Assembly (NCBI GenBank): GCA_944389545.1
Contig: CALXMT010000011.1
Location: forward strand, 3,479 to 67,478
DNA length: 64,000 nt
Reading direction: 5' to 3'
Origin: an uncultured Kiritimatiellota bacterium
Lineage (GTDB): Bacteria; Verrucomicrobiota; Kiritimatiellia; RFP12; DVOR01
A program made the position numbers and the translations under genes. Shown here in pieces: positions 3,395 through 61,481 of this stretch. Position 1 is the stretch's first letter, and the number at the start of each line of letters is the position of its first letter. The notes below the pieces were generated by a model. The model was not told the origin of the DNA and ran no database searches. It worked only from the letters and a program-made list of their open reading frames with translations.

Positions 3395-3729
3395 TAGTGT
3401 CCGGGGAAAATTGGGACCGCAAAGACGCAAGGGTGGGCGCGAACCGCTTCGGGCTCCGGCGGTCGCTCTGCGGCTTCGCCGCTGACCGCGACCGCCGCCC
3501 TCCGTTTCGCGCCGTGAGATAAGAAGTCAGGGTGTGGGGCGGAGCCCCACCAACAAAACCAAGCTTCTAAGCCTCCAAGCCTCTAAACTTCCCAATTCCC
3601 CTTTGAGCGCCCCTTCAGGGGCGCGCTAGCGTGGAAATCCCAAGGGCGGCGCGACCAACGGGAGCGATGGAGCCCGCAGGGTTTCCACGCAGGACCGTCT
3701 TCGCGGTAAAACTTCCCCGGACACTACTG
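3395..3729 (+). mobile_element. MITE-like palindromic repeat, family A copy 1 (~335 bp; TIR tAGTGTCCGGGGAAAA / TTCCCCGGACACTAct)
   Basis: Near-identical to copies at ~9254, ~46811 and ~61119. The left and right arms are imperfect inverted complements. It contains the conserved hairpin GCGCCCCTTCAGGGGCGC and the stem GCGTGGAAA...TTTCCACGC. The right terminal 11 bp (GGACACTACTG) is repeated once more at ~3734-3744. Confidence 0.75.
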
Positions 3730-3744
3730 CCTGGACACTACTGA

Positions 3745-3773
3745 GTTTGCGGAAGTGTGCATGATGTGGTATG
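3745..3773 (+). promoter_or_regulatory. candidate sigma70-type promoter for folD (TTGCGG -17 bp- TGgTATGCT)
   Basis: A -35-like TTGCGG and an extended -10 TGGTATGCT with 17-bp spacing lie ~35 bp upstream of the folD ATG, directly abutting the right end of MITE A1. Confidence 0.3.
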
Positions 3774-3805
3774 CTTTAAGCGTAAATCGAGAAAGTGAGC
3801 ATGAA

Positions 3806-4699
3806 ATGAAGGCTGAGTGCATTGACGGCAAGGCCTTGGCGGCGGAGACGCGCGCGAAGGTCAAGGCGGGTGTCGCGGAACTGAAGGCCAAGACGGGCAT
3901 TGTGCCCGGCCTGGGCGTTGTGTTGGTGGGGGATGACCCGGCCTCACGCAGTTACGTCACGGCCAAGGAGCGTGCCTTGGAAGAGGCCGGCATGCGCTCG
4001 GTGGACGTGCGTCTGCCGGAGGGGACGACGCAAGAGGAGTTGCTCGGTGTCATTGCACGGTTGAACGCGGACCCACAGGTGCATGGCATTCTGGTGCAGT
4101 TGCCGTTGCCGAAGGGATTGGACACAGAGGCCGTCATCCAAGCCATCGCGCCAGAGAAGGATGTGGACGGTTTCACGCCCATCAATGTGGGCAAGATGAT
4201 TTTGGGACAGGAATGCTTCCTGCCGTGCACGCCGCATGGCGTGTTGCGACTCCTACAAAAGGCCGGTGCGGTCACGCGCGGCGCACATGCCGTGGTGGTG
4301 GGCCGCAGCGACATCGTAGGGCGTCCGCTTGCCAATCTCTTGACGCGCAAGGCACCGGACGGTGACGCGACCGTGACGCTTTGCCACTCCGCGACGCCGG
4401 ATTTGGCGCGCTTCACGCGCGAGGCGGATATCCTCATCGTGGCAACGGGCCGCCCCCACACTGTCACCGGCGAAATGGTCAAGCCCGGCGCCGTCGTCAT
4501 TGATGTGGGCGTGAACCGTGTGCCTGACCCGACCGCGCAACGAGGATACCGTCTGCGCGGCGACTGCGACTTTGAGAGCGTCGCAGAGGTTGCGTCGAAG
4601 ATCACGCCCGTGCCGGGTGGCGTCGGGCCCATGACCATCGCCATGTTGCTTGAGAACACCCTTGTGGCCGCCCAACGCGCGGCGGGAGGCAAATCGTGA
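3806..4699 (+). CDS. folD: bifunctional methylenetetrahydrofolate dehydrogenase / methenyl-THF cyclohydrolase
   Basis: Full-length FolD-like sequence ([12 protein letters not shown]...GILVQLPLP...[17 protein letters not shown]...[10 protein letters not shown]). Start moved to the in-frame ATG at 3806; the track's 3755 start is a poor N-terminal extension. Confidence 0.9.
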
Positions 4700-59199: not shown

Positions 59200-61059
59200 A
59201 TGAAAGGCTTCCATCGTATCGCCGCCATCACCCCCTCGGTCTCCGTGGCCAATCCCCTCGCCAACGCCAAGGCCATCCTTGAGCTGGCCTATCAGGCCTA
59301 TGAGCAGGGCGCCCAACTCATCCTCACACCGGAGCTTTCGCTCACCGGCTACACCTGCGGCGACCTCTTCGGCTCGGCTTCCCTTGCCAAACAGACGAAA
59401 GAGGCGCTGGACTTCCTCCAGATTAATCTCGACAACCGTTTCGACCTCGTCGTCGGCCTGCCCGTTGCGGTGGACGACCGTCTCTACAACTGCGCCGCCG
59501 TCATCCACTGCGGCTCAGTCGTCGGCTACGTCCCCAAGACCCACCTCCCCACCTACCGCGAGTTCTACGAAAAGCGCCACTTCGTCTCCGGCGCGGCCCT
59601 CCCGCCCAACGCCGAGATTGACGGCGTGCCCATCGGCACCGACCTCCTCTTCGATGCCGGCGCCTTCCGCTTCGGCATCGAAATTTGCGAGGACCTCTGG
59701 GCCGTCGACGCCCCCTCCAACCGCCTGGCCGCCGCCCGTGCCCACCTCATCCTCAACCCCTCCGCCTCCACCGAGGCCGTGGGCAAGGCCGCCTACCGCC
59801 GCGACCTCGTGCGGATGCAATCGGCCCGACTCTCCTGCGCCTATGCCTACGCCTCCGCGGGCTCCGGCGAATCCACCACCGACGTCGTCTACGGCGCGCA
59901 CCGCATCCTAGCCAACAACGGCCGCGTCCTCGCCGAATCCCGCTGGGACGAAGGCATCAGCCTCATGGACTTCCGACCGGACTGGATCGACGCCGTCCGC
60001 CGCCGCGAGACCTCCTTCCCCGAACTCCCGCTCGCGCCCTGCCGCGTCATCCAGGCCTACATCCCCGGCTTCGAGCCCTCGGAGAGCGACGGCTCCCTCG
60101 CCGGCCTCGACCCCACCCCCTTCGTTCCCGCCGACGATGCCCGCCGACAGGAACGTTGCCGTGAAATCCTCCGCATCCAAGTCGCCGGTCTCATCAAGCG
60201 CTTCACGCACACCCACGCCAAGCGCCTCGTCATCGGCCTCTCCGGCGGACTCGATTCCACCCTCGCCCTCCTCGTCTGCCACGAGACCTGCAAGCGTCTC
60301 GGCCTGCCCCCGCGCGAGACCATCCTCGCCGTGACGATGCCGGGCTTCGGCACCTCCCACCGCACCCATTCCAACGTCCAAGCCCTCGCCCAAGAGCTCG
60401 ACATCGAACTCCGCGAGATTCCTATCGGCCCCGGCGTGGAGCAACACTTCAAGGACATCGGCCACGACCCCGCCGTCCGCGACGTCACCTACGAAAACGC
60501 CCAGGCCCGCGCCCGCACCTACATCCTCATGGACCTCGCCAACCAAGAGGGTGGACTCCTCGTCGGCACCGGCGACCTCTCTGAAATCGCCCTCGGTTGG
60601 TCCACCTACAACGGCGACCACATGTCCATGTACGCCGTCAACTGCGGCGTCCCCAAGACCCTCGTCCGCTACTGCGTCGAGTCCGTCGCCGCGGACTCCC
60701 CCGCCGACCTCGCCGCCACCCTCCGCGACATCTGCGACACCCCCGTCTCCCCCGAGTTGCTCCCCGGCGACCAACAGACCGAGGCCATCGTCGGCTCCTA
60801 CGAGCTCCACGATTGTTTCCTCTACTACTTCATGAAGTACGGCTGCGACCGCGACGACCTCCGCGACCTCGCCACCTTCCTCCTCGGCGACCGCCACAGC
60901 GCGGACGAAATCGAGCGCACGCTCGACAGCTTCTGCCGCCGCTTCGTCACCCAGCAATTCAAGCGCTCCGCCATCCCCGATGGTCCCAAGGTCGGCACCG
61001 TCGCCCTCTCTCCCCGCGGCGATTGGCGCATGCCCTCCGACGCCTCCTTCACCCTCTAA
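59200..61059 (+). CDS. nadE: glutamine-dependent NAD+ synthetase (nitrilase domain + synthetase domain)
   Basis: N-terminal CN-hydrolase domain (…ILTPELSLTGY…, …EICEDLW…) and a C-terminal …GLSGGLDSTLALLV… PP-loop. Confidence 0.85.
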   Translation: MKGFHRIAAITPSVSVANPLANAKAILELAYQAYEQGAQLILTPELSLTGYTCGDLFGSASLAKQTKEALDFLQINLDNRFDLVVGLPVAVDDRLYNCAAVIHCGSVVGYVPKTHLPTYREFYEKRHFVSGAALPPNAEIDGVPIGTDLLFDAGAFRFGIEICEDLWAVDAPSNRLAAARAHLILNPSASTEAVGKAAYRRDLVRMQSARLSCAYAYASAGSGESTTDVVYGAHRILANNGRVLAESRWDEGISLMDFRPDWIDAVRRRETSFPELPLAPCRVIQAYIPGFEPSESDGSLAGLDPTPFVPADDARRQERCREILRIQVAGLIKRFTHTHAKRLVIGLSGGLDSTLALLVCHETCKRLGLPPRETILAVTMPGFGTSHRTHSNVQALAQELDIELREIPIGPGVEQHFKDIGHDPAVRDVTYENAQARARTYILMDLANQEGGLLVGTGDLSEIALGWSTYNGDHMSMYAVNCGVPKTLVRYCVESVAADSPADLAATLRDICDTPVSPELLPGDQQTEAIVGSYELHDCFLYYFMKYGCDRDDLRDLATFLLGDRHSADEIERTLDSFCRRFVTQQFKRSAIPDGPKVGTVALSPRGDWRMPSDASFTL

Positions 61060-61086
61060 GTACGCGTCAAGCAAAGACCACAAAAA

Positions 61087-61115
61087 CGTGAGGGGCGGCG
61101 TAAGCCGTCCCTCAC
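61087..61115 (+). terminator. GC-rich hairpin downstream of nadE (GTGAGGGGCGG-cgtaa-GCCGTCCCTCAC), no clear U-tract
   Basis: 11-bp stem with one mismatch immediately after the nadE stop; it abuts MITE A4. Confidence 0.35.
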
Positions 61116-61118
61116 CAG

Positions 61119-61481
61119 TAGTGTCCGGGGAAAACGAGAACCGCAAAGACGCAACAGTGGGCGCGAAACGCCTCGGGCTCCATCGGTCGCTCTGCGGCTC
61201 TGCCGCTGACCGCGCCCGCCGCCCTCCGTTTCGCGCCTTGAAGTAGAAAGTCGAGGCATGGGACAAAGCCCCACCGCGAAGCCCGGGGGCACAAAGTGCA
61301 ATTCTTCCACGGCTATCTTCCAAGCTTCCAAGCTTCTATCCTTCATCATCTTCTTTTGAGCGCCCCTTCAGGGGCGCGATAGCGTGGAAATCCCAAGGGC
61401 GGCGCGACCAATGGGAGCGATGGAGCCCGCAAGGTTTCCACGCAAACCGTCTTCGCGGAAAAACTTTCCCCAGACACTATT
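61119..61481 (+). mobile_element. MITE-like repeat family A copy 4 (longest; central region expanded)
   Basis: Both TIRs and both conserved arms are present; the central variable segment is ~35 bp longer than in the other copies. Confidence 0.75.

Follow-up and report, generated by a model that had tools for sequence, protein, structure and literature searches.

What is the ~335-bp palindromic repeat that occurs four times within a short stretch of DNA from an uncultured PVC-group bacterium? In the window (the whole stretch of 64,000 nucleotides analyzed here), a BLASTN search with copy 3, our reference copy of family A (46808-47140), recovered four copies, exactly those listed in the first-pass annotation (E-values from 1e-118 to 1e-80). 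Compared with copy 3, the stretch 3395-3726 is 86% identical, 9256-9568 is 83% identical and 61119-61480 is 76% identical. We conclude that family A is very probably a non-autonomous DNA transposon, or MITE, within a superfamily of small elements. Its members have the characteristics of a MITE: they are 333-367 bp long and non-coding, with 19-bp terminal inverted repeats (TIRs), 9-bp target-site duplications (TSDs) and many dispersed intergenic copies. The mobile, MITE-like character proposed earlier is further supported by the presence of copies at many unrelated loci, and by a site upstream of folD that differs among strains. Neither of the outcomes that the first-pass annotation named as refuting it was seen: the element has further copies beyond the window, and the four do not represent segments of one duplicated gene.

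The termini of family A form a 19-bp inverted repeat, CA(A/G)TAGTGTCCGGGGAAAA on the left and TTTTCCCCGGACACTA(T/C)TG on the right, and copies 1, 3 and 4 carry it on either side. The repeat had been measured at 14-16 bp and ascribed to all four copies. It extends outward by another 3 bp at either end, and the limits of copies 1, 3 and 4 are therefore those given in Table 1; copy 2 lacks the right repeat, ending at ...GCGGAAAAAC and then abutting a different small repeat. At every locus, similarity stops exactly at the 19-bp termini, and the flanks of different copies are unrelated. The terminal motif TASTGTCCGGGGAAA occurs 15 times in the window with up to 2 mismatches, compared to 0.15 expected from shuffled sequences.

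Table 1. Elements, copy 3 modules and TSDs; positions refer to the window unless preceded by the label of a related locus (L).
Feature	Position	Strand	Details
Family A copy 1	3392..3729	+	338 bp; subtype with GAGATAAGAAGTC... centre
Right-tip remnant of older mini-element	3730..3743	+	CCTGGACACTACTG; host site of copy 1 insertion
Family A copy 2	9253..9568	+	truncated; right terminal repeat missing
Family C module fragment	9569..9625	-	GCAAGGGATGGGCACGGT...; adjoins truncated end of copy 2; C1 57-95 matches 9602-9564
Solo or decayed end	38536..38702	+	terminal repeat and inner motif, then part of X2-type module
Family A copy 3	46808..47140	+	333 bp; no TSD
Copy 3 left TIR	46808-46826 (approximate)
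Copy 3 inner motif	46833-46844 (approximate)		CCGCAAAGACGC
Copy 3 left stem-loop module	about 46852-46929
Copy 3 variable centre	about 46930-47017
Copy 3 hairpin	47018-47035 (approximate)		GCGCCCCTTCAGGGGCGC
Copy 3 right stem-loop module	about 47040-47101
Copy 3 right-side inner motif	about 47105-47118
Copy 3 right TIR	47122-47140 (approximate)
Family B copy 1	47150..47423	+	274 bp; 19-bp termini as in family A
Solo terminal repeat	47447..47465	-	CTTTCCCAGGACACTACG on + strand
Family B copy 2	49188..49461	-	274 bp; TSD CGTCAAATC, 9/9, at 49179-49187 and 49462-49470
Family B copy 3	55358..55630	-	273 bp; degenerate TSD GGGCAACGC / GAGTAACGC, 7/9
Family C single-module element	55756..55880	+	ends in GTCTTCGTGGAAACTTCCCCGGCAC, related to family A right end
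Family A copy 4	61116..61482	+	367 bp; no TSD
TSD, family A	L001 9593-9924		CCTGGACAC, 9/9; orthologue of window copy 1
TSD, family A	L016 819-1283		TCGCTGAAG, 9/9
TSD, family A	L029 10047-10384		CAGACGCGC, 9/9
TSD, family A	L005 1857-2195		8/9
TSD, family B	L010 4831-5090		9/9
TSD, family B	L019		8/9
TSD, composite element (1175 bp)	L003 3549-4723		CCAAGAAAG, 9/9

All four copies are intergenic according to the list of open reading frames and Pfam, as had been claimed. The folD start (3806) follows copy 1 at a distance of 77 bp. The genes around copy 2 diverge (thiD on the - strand, a Sel1-repeat gene on the + strand), and those around copy 4 converge (nadE on the + strand, a gene for a solute-binding/permease fusion on the - strand). 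Pfam confirms the neighbors named as folD, thiD (Phos_pyr_kin) and nadE, but the 1181-aa ORF called 'asmA-like' has no Pfam match, and no sigma-70-like promoter is predicted beside copy 1, where a folD promoter had been placed. No coding frame is open across the copies, and most of them contain stops in all frames. A search of 5.8 billion proteins with the translated arms returned only 40 small spurious ORFs (75-191 aa, no Pfam domain); the elements make gene callers produce spurious small proteins.

In families A and B, 9-bp TSDs are located directly outside CA(A/G)T...A(T/C)TG, without a TA rule. A 9/9 match is expected by chance at 4e-6 per element. We found no TSD at window copies 1, 3 and 4 (1-3 of 9 positions match) and copy 2 is truncated; therefore, the direct evidence for insertion comes from paralogues and one orthologue. 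If the copies were instead immobile, and derived from an ancestral intergenic sequence through segmental duplication or gene conversion, then the missing TSDs of these three copies would be expected, as would centres that look exchanged between copies. However, the similarity ends exactly at the termini within unrelated flanks, several 9-bp TSDs are perfect, and one copy is nested in another element's end with that end's sequence as its TSD. We consider such an immobile origin extremely unlikely. The elements, with their many GC-rich hairpins and their intergenic, clustered and nested arrangement, also recall REP/BIME-like or IS200/IS605-type palindromes, which a Y1 (HUH) transposase mobilizes in the form of single-stranded DNA hairpins. 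IS200/IS605 and REP elements are not known to have either terminal inverted repeats or target duplications, whereas both the 19-bp TIRs and the fixed 9-bp TSDs are present here, and no locus table contains a Y1 or TnpB-like ORF. We rejected this identity, and its remaining probability is practically negligible.

A comparison of strains is consistent with transposition followed by rearrangement. The site upstream of folD has four configurations in five strains (the window and L001-L004), with flanking genes at least 98.2% identical. It is occupied by family A copies of different subtypes in the window and L001, by family C in L002 and L004, and by another relative in L003. Across strains, homology restarts at one common base, and the ends of copy 1 coincide exactly with a break in gene order. 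Window copy 1 retains only the right-hand half of its TSD, which is the first 9 bp of the remnant at 3730-3743, and its homology to L001 ends exactly at the left tip; in L001, the remainder of the older mini-element (roughly 115 bp) lies left of the family A insertion. Copies 2, 3 and 4 are fixed in all strains sampled, copy 2 being found in four of the four strain contigs examined, and copy 3 varies by an internal deletion in L034 and the loss of its right tip in L032. No clean empty site for a family A copy was recovered in the sampled strains.

Because TSDs are missing and synteny breaks at element tips, we infer that recombination occurred after insertion, and it is the likeliest cause of both the missing TSDs and the gene-order break at the ends of copy 1. 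Inserted copies would act as substrates for ectopic recombination or deletion, which could remove TSDs, swap centres and break gene order. Copies without TSDs and neighboring rearrangements are published behavior of insertion sequences (PMC11708052). The elements mark gene-order breakpoints between near-identical strains, both upstream of folD and downstream of PFK, where L031 has other DNA in place of the element-bearing segment of the other strains. They also explain the fragmented assemblies of these organisms, several contigs of which end within them.

We now turn to the modular composition of the elements. Family A consists of an 'X' end and a 'Y' end around a hypervariable centre. An end module contains, in order, the 19-bp terminal repeat, a 4-22 nt spacer, the motif CCGCAAAGACG (CCGC(A/G)AAGACG) and a GC-rich stem-loop of ~85 nt. 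The centres are mosaics of several mini-modules, built of small hairpins and microsatellites, and look as though they have been swapped between copies. Different end types pair up to produce family A, family B and hybrids. Family B joins a Z end to an X-like end, and one end module of its first copy (47150-47423) shares homology with the left module of family A; X+C hybrids also exist, as does a 277-bp X+Y form whose centre is almost absent. We propose that a DDE-type transposase acting in trans would bind the two-part ends and cut the target with a 9-bp stagger, creating the 9-bp direct duplications. If any pair of inversely oriented ends can be mobilized as a unit, then family B, the X+C hybrids, the 277-bp X+Y form and the 1175-bp composite element would all be accounted for.

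New insertions often land within or directly beside existing ends, as three independent cases demonstrate. In L001, a family A copy has inserted 5 bp inside an older end, and its TSD is that end's sequence. In the window, family B copy 1 starts exactly 9 bp past the right tip of copy 3. The same arrangement of A tip, 9 bp and B element is found in L010, where the 9 bp are the TSD of the B copy. Together, the modular ends and end-targeted insertions offer a tidy natural example of MITE families born from the pairing of solo ends.

The two arms of family A, ~125 bp each, are conserved far past the 19-bp repeat and much better than the centres. As first described, they are imperfect reverse complements (~73% over ~70 nt), and because they are inverted the element has the potential to form one long hairpin; the whole element folds at -172 kcal/mol (z = -7.2). 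The stem GCGTGGAAA...TTTCCACGC is present in all four copies. Two further descriptions held in part: the perfect hairpin GCGCCCCTTCAGGGGCGC is found in copies 1, 3 and 4 but not in copy 2, which has GCACCCCTTCAGGGGTGC with a compensated change, and the central motifs are shared by some copies only (GATAAGAA by copies 1 and 2, GGGCGGAGCCCCACC by copies 1 and 3), with CAGCTAAGCTTCCAA exact only in copy 3. Stem-loops sit at an identical position in end types of differing sequence, and their closing stems vary by end type (GCGCGAA/TTCGCGC, GCGTGGAAA/TTTCCACGC and GCAGGAAAG/CTTTCCTGC). The GC-rich hairpin before the right module likewise persists despite its replaced sequence (GCGCCCCTTCAGGGGCGC versus GGGGCGGCGCTAGCCGCCCC in L010 and L029).

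These structures raise the alternative that the repeats are genes or cis-elements of a structured RNA (an sRNA, a riboswitch-like leader or an attenuator), conserved by their structure and not by transposition. The whole element does fold far better than shuffles, and the right arm alone gives z = -2.9, but the left arm folds no better than shuffles (z = -0.7). A closing stem of different sequence at one position in each end type, the compensated change in the GCGCCCC hairpin of copy 2 and the handful of compensatory pairs seen in the family B module would also fit. However, Rfam yielded zero matches across the whole window at the gathering threshold, and only noise across 46700-47600 (copy 3 and family B copy 1) at E-values up to 10. 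None of 25 pairs covaries in 18 left arms, covariation in the right arm is minimal, and the covariation term is positive in both. With no Rfam match and almost no covariation, the structured-RNA alternative raised by the first-pass annotation is therefore unsupported, and nothing shows RNA selection on the long hairpin. Further, neither copy 1 nor copy 4 contains a predicted promoter or terminator, orientation and distance to genes are inconsistent among copies, and TSDs and terminal inverted repeats are foreign to RNA genes. An RNA identity of the repeats is very unlikely.

Within the transposon interpretation, simple transposase binding does not fully explain the conservation of the ~125-bp arms and the positioned stem-loops. 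The host may also have co-opted the MITE, whose palindromic DNA or hairpin-forming transcript could insulate or attenuate transcription, be a target of RNase III or serve as a site for protein binding, which would explain why the arms are far better conserved than the centres. The hairpin that outlasts its own sequence and the fixation of copies 2-4 across sampled strains agree with a host role, and Correia and ERIC elements have documented roles of this type (PMC10969869). Yet arm conservation is equally expected from subterminal requirements of transposition or from recent expansion, no promoter or terminator is predicted, and the placement relative to genes is inconsistent; overall, co-option appears unlikely. 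There is a small chance that the ~85-nt stem-loop modules, whose position and closing stem are retained in four end types that differ in sequence, are functional structured nucleic acids and not mere transposase-binding DNA. They could be single-stranded DNA or RNA structures for an unrecognized transposase, or a host-co-opted RNA spread by the MITE. If the modules are functional, the absence of a matching insertion sequence would reflect an unrecognized mobilizing enzyme in PVC bacteria. A new biological question arises only if the subterminal modules prove functional or the mobilizing enzyme unusual.

Pfam tables and a multicopy-ORF screen revealed neither an autonomous element nor a transposase bearing these termini in the window or ~430 kb of related loci, and no transposase or insertion sequence with them was found in plasmids, JGI contigs or viral contigs. 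Consequently, the mobilizing enzyme is one that we infer. No similarity to annotated insertion sequence ends was detected. Duplications of 9 bp are made by IS4/IS5-type DDE insertion sequences (IS10, IS50, IS903) and by ISLre2, while those of ISAs1 are 8-10 bp; several IS4 subgroups have 5'-C(A/T) tips, and IS4/IS5-type TIRs are about 15-25 bp long. Of the features of family A, the 9-bp TSD and the 5'-CA tip alone are compatible with IS4/IS5-type elements, and this family assignment is a tentative lead.

Two GTDB bins and ENA metagenome contigs together have the elements at more than 20 distinct loci, and many unrelated loci in at least three genomes carry elements with these termini. The only reference bin with the family has 13 strict matches. 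With 15 ends in 64 kb and, at several loci of 10-20 kb, 3-5 elements each, the local density makes hundreds of copies genome-wide plausible. The family is seen only in PVC-group metagenome bins, labeled Kiritimatiellaeota or Lentisphaerota, and is apparently a MITE family new for this lineage though an ordinary kind of element. It adds a MITE superfamily with defined ends (19 bp) and TSD (9 bp) to a barely studied uncultured PVC lineage.

Known small elements resemble family A to different extents. The Correia elements of Neisseria duplicate TA; they measure about 100-155 bp, have repeats of 26 bp and contain IHF sites as well as promoters. Family A differs by its 9-bp duplication, unrelated sequence and lack of a predicted promoter, and we rejected a Correia (CREE) identity on account of the 9-bp TSD without a TA rule and the unrelated termini. 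The two are alike as abundant, strain-variable intergenic MITEs with TIRs near gene starts, and Correia transcripts fold into long hairpins (PMC10969869). MITEAba12 of Acinetobacter, whose parent is ISAba12, is similarly a non-coding bacterial MITE with imperfect TIRs and partly surviving 9-bp TSDs, which are kept in only 36 of 90 copies, and it is mobilized in trans (PMC6382973). It is 113 bp long and 78% AT, with 16-bp repeats and a co-resident parent insertion sequence (PMC6382973), whereas family A is 333-367 bp long and GC-rich, with 19-bp repeats, ~125-bp stem-loop arms and no parent found. A plasmid BLAST search found no sequence similarity to MITEAba12.

The BOX, RUP and SPRITE repeats of Streptococcus pneumoniae likewise form several small modular families that are clustered and mutually inserted (PMC10969869). 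Their sequences are unrelated and their host belongs to a different phylum; here, the families have one set of termini and therefore probably one transposase. BrickBuilt of Porphyromonas gingivalis shares with family A the conserved ends, small inverted repeats, an interior of variable length and an intergenic location, always intergenic in its case, with 'leader' and 'tail' ends around internal tandem repeats (PMC4596501). The BrickBuilt core is a regular 23-nt minisatellite (PMC4596501), in contrast to the mini-module mosaics of family A centres. This genome also contains 23-bp palindromic arrays, which adjoin family A copies and are not inside them.

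Using copy 3 of family A as a BLASTN query (46811-47138), we found three other full-length matches in the window and no more (E-values from 1e-118 to 1e-80), confirming the four copies of this palindromic, MITE-like repeat. With up to two mismatches allowed, we counted 15 occurrences of the terminal motif across the window, compared with 0.15 expected from shuffled sequences; together with the BLASTN matches, this establishes the repeat as real, far beyond chance. In an alignment of the four copies, two arms of ~125 bp are strongly conserved and the centre is variable. The terminal inverted repeats (TIRs), previously given as 14-16 bp on all four copies, are actually 19 bp long, extending 3 bp farther outward, with the form CA(A/G)TAGTGTCCGGGGAAAA ... 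TTTTCCCCGGACACTA(T/C)TG; copies 1, 3 and 4 carry them at both ends, but copy 2 does not. Three copies carry the hairpin GCGCCCCTTCAGGGGCGC unchanged, and copy 2 has a compensated version of it (GCACCCC...GGGGTGC). The central motifs described as shared are only partly so. All four copies are indeed intergenic, and Pfam identified FolD, ThiD and NadE among the neighbouring genes as named, but the 'asmA-like' 1181-aa ORF has no Pfam match; nor has an 876-aa ORF (528-3158). The window also holds two 45-bp tandem repeats (~2-2.4 copies), one running downstream from the 3' terminus of the 876-aa ORF, the other inside the 1181-aa ORF.

With the tip of each element set at the outer edge of its 19-bp repeat, we compared the 9 bp flanking it on both sides, in the window and in related metagenome, bin and strain loci (L-numbers in the table). 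A 9/9 match has a chance probability of ~4e-6 per element, and the perfect flank matches therefore establish a fixed 9-bp target-site duplication (TSD), which is the signature of a staggered transposase cut. The 9-bp TSDs, the 19-bp TIRs and the dispersed intergenic copies support the first-pass interpretation of family A as a MITE. Descent from an IS630/Tc1-type element, which would duplicate TA, was rejected, as the TSD has 9 bp and conservation continues for 3 bp past the 'TA'. Among the insertion sequence families of ISfinder, 5'-CA tips combined with a 9-bp duplication best fit the IS4 type and are compatible with IS903, ISAs1 or ISLre2; we regard IS4-type affinity as a lead.

Repeat elements, related loci and sites compared
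Feature	Locus	Position	Description
Family A copy 1	Window	3392-3729 (BLASTN match 3395-3726)	TIR-bounded; 86% identity to copy 3
Family A copy 2	Window	9253-9568 (BLASTN match 9256-9568)	Right terminus lost; adjoins fragment of a different small repeat; 83% identity to copy 3
Family A copy 3	Window	46808-47140	TIR-bounded
Family A copy 4	Window	61116-61482 (BLASTN match 61119-61480)	TIR-bounded; 76% identity to copy 3
Family A	L001	9593-9924	TSD CCTGGACAC, 9/9
Family A	L016	819-1283	X+Y ends, 200-bp centre, 465 bp; TSD TCGCTGAAG, 9/9
Family A	L029	10047-10384	TSD CAGACGCGC, 9/9
Family A	L005	1857-2195	TSD 8/9
Family B copy 1 (B1)	Window	47150-47423	Same termini as family A
Family B copy 2 (B2)	Window	49188-49461	Same termini as family A; TSD CGTCAAATC, 9/9
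Family B copy 3	Window	55358-55630	Same termini as family A; TSD 7/9
Family B	L010	4831-5090	TSD 9/9
Family B	L019		TSD 8/9
Family C	Window	55756-55880, 9569-9625	
Family C	L002/L004	~9790-9925	
Composite	L003	3549-4723	Bounded by two ends, 1175 bp; TSD CCAAGAAAG, 9/9
X+Y ends	L014		Centre almost absent, 277 bp
X+C hybrids	L013		
Mini-modules	L006	4600-4830	
Mini-modules	L007	2060-2130	
Mini-modules	L010	5215-5270	
Mini-modules	L041/L043/L045		EamA site
folD site	Window		Family A copy, one centre type
folD site	L001		Family A copy with centre of window copy 3, 97% identical to copy 3
folD site	L002 and L004		Family C element
folD site	L003		Another relative
Break region	Window vs L001-L004	3389-3745	
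Break region	Window vs L031	46741-47735	
GTDB bin match	CALXOF01		'uncultured Kiritimatiellaeota bacterium', 13 sites
GTDB bin match	DVOR01		'Candidatus Spyradenecus faecavium', 2 sites
23-bp-unit arrays	Window	47468-47597, 31271-31372	
45-bp tandem repeats	Window	3158-3264, 46081-46179	

Family B is a sister MITE of ~274 bp, with three window copies sharing family A's 19-bp termini. At one end it has a module (X2) ~72% identical to the left module of family A; the opposite end (Z) carries a different one. B1 and B2 flank a phosphofructokinase (PFK) gene in inverted orientation; a composite transposon B1-PFK-B2 was rejected, since the outer flanks match at only 4/9 positions and B2 is flanked by a TSD of its own. 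The positions of several elements relative to one another bear on target choice. The family A copy of L001, orthologous to window copy 1, has inserted into an older mini-element of ~115 bp, 5 bp in from its right end, and the duplicated 9 bp (9584-9592) belong to the sequence of that end. Window B1 begins exactly 9 bp past the right tip of copy 3 (gap 47141-47149), and the same A-9 bp-B layout is found at the unrelated locus L010, where the 9 bp (5091-5099) are the TSD of the B copy. From these three independent cases, the two layouts and the L001 nesting, we infer that insertion may be directed at existing element ends. Separately, tandem arrays of a 23-bp unit with the palindrome GACCCTATAGGGTC vary in copy number among near-identical strains, one of which carries an insertion of ~230 bp within the array; the unit also occurs within composite repeats of L003, L011 and L041.

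The two arms of family A are, as first described, imperfect reverse complements of each other (inverted homology ~73% over ~70 nt), so that the whole element folds as a single long hairpin (folding energy -172 kcal/mol, z = -7.2). Each arm follows one plan: the terminal repeat, a 4-22 nt spacer, a CCGC(A/G)AAGACG motif and then a GC-rich stem-loop of ~85 nt, whose closing stem is GCGCGAA/TTCGCGC in the left end (X) and GCGTGGAAA/TTTCCACGC in the right end (Y). Ends are interchangeable among related loci, and several solo ends are present in the window. Family C elements consist of just one stem-loop module (GCAAGGGATGGGCACGG...GTGCCC...CCCTTGC) and terminate in GTCTTCGTGGAAACTTCCCCGGCAC, which is related to the right end of family A. 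The centres of family A change fast; at the EamA site, those of near-identical strains differ by gained or lost mini-modules, among them GGAGAAC runs, GCTGATT runs and small hairpins. Such mini-modules, of which element centres are built and which come and go between strains, include GGAGAAC heptamer runs beside GCGCCCCTGCGGGGCG hairpins, GCTGATT runs beside GTGGGGC-N3-GCCCCAC hairpins, and GGCCC-AGA-GGGCC hairpins.

The first-pass annotation had offered a transcribed structured RNA as the alternative to a MITE. Single arms fold just 0.7-2.9 sd better than shuffles, and the covariation term is unfavourable in both left and right arms. The 18 left arms, too invariant to inform, have no predicted pair with a compensatory change; the test on the 12 right arms is weak, with five compensatory pairs that come mostly from one diverged copy and the copy 2 hairpin change. 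The Rfam search of the whole window at the gathering threshold had no match, that of 46700-47600 at E-values up to 10 returned nothing useful, the tRNA/tmRNA scan found none, and copies 1 and 4 have no predicted sigma-70-like promoter or intrinsic terminator, either within them or alongside. The closing stems, however, are kept at the same position in four end types of differing sequence, a persistence that is not fully explained and that is the basis of a less probable but more novel reading, in which the stem-loop modules would themselves be functional structured nucleic acids. On balance, the structured RNA reading is unsupported, and we retain that of a MITE.

Across five strains at least 98.2% identical over folD and downstream, the site directly upstream of GTTTGCGGAAGTG (folD) has four different configurations, with different upstream genes in every one. 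The window and L001 are homologous precisely from copy 1's left tip onward, and of the TSD only the right-hand half remains in the window. Downstream of PFK in L031, the element-bearing segment of the other strains is replaced by unrelated genes, which begin shortly after the terminator of PFK. The elements mark rearrangement breakpoints between strains at least 98% identical, and the folD break lies exactly at element ends. Copy 3 itself has an internal deletion bounded by microhomology in L034 and has lost its right tip in L032. Window copies 1, 3 and 4 have no TSD (1-3/9 flank bases match), like many copies of MITEAba12, which keeps its TSD in 36/90 copies (PMC6382973); the loss of the TSD here probably reflects ectopic recombination between copies or adjacent deletion. 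TSD-less copies and adjacent rearrangement are published behaviour of insertion sequences (PMC11708052).

Candidates for an autonomous partner were sought in several ways. Pfam found no transposase among ten ORFs around the window copies or in the related loci covered, and the ORF between the inverted B copies was rejected as a transposase, being phosphofructokinase by Pfam. Solo ends in L006, L007, L011 and L015 were all decayed fragments or composites, with no autonomous partner, and the sole long TSD-flanked pair in a TIR-pair scan up to 4 kb was the non-coding L003 composite. When a translated element was searched against a 5.8-billion-protein set, the matches were 40 clusters of short ORFs lacking domains, every one from an ENA assembly, which shows that the arms do not lie within a transposase gene, at least in the one reading frame searched, and that repeats of this kind pollute gene calls; a transposase domain was absent from eight contigs around these spurious ORFs. 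In an all-vs-all BLASTP of 596 ORFs, the multicopy proteins were Sel1, RHS and ABC paralogues only.

PVC examples are absent from a 2024 review of MITEs in prokaryotes (PMC10969869). Full-text searches on the terminal repeat and on transposable elements of Kiritimatiellota returned unrelated primer matches or none, and nothing on this sequence. The two-part end pattern had one chance match in JGI metagenomes, inside pheS; the terminal repeat had four in IMG/VR, in coding DNA; and distant-mode BLASTN of PLSDB plasmids with copy 3 had none. Among one genome per GTDB species, the strict two-part end pattern matched two bins only, of which 'Candidatus Spyradenecus faecavium' is filed by NCBI under Lentisphaerota, which puts both in the PVC group. 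None of their sites is orthologous to one in the window, and the family is therefore carried by at least three genomes. We place family A within a modular superfamily found in PVC-group bacteria. The window's FolD, NadE and PFK proteins have identical sequences on many ENA metagenome contigs (DNA 98-100% identical). In such data the elements break up assemblies and give rise to spurious proteins. Many metagenome contigs of this organism (L035-L039, L043-L046) end inside these repeats or within a few hundred bases of them, and gene callers place 75-191-aa ORFs across them.
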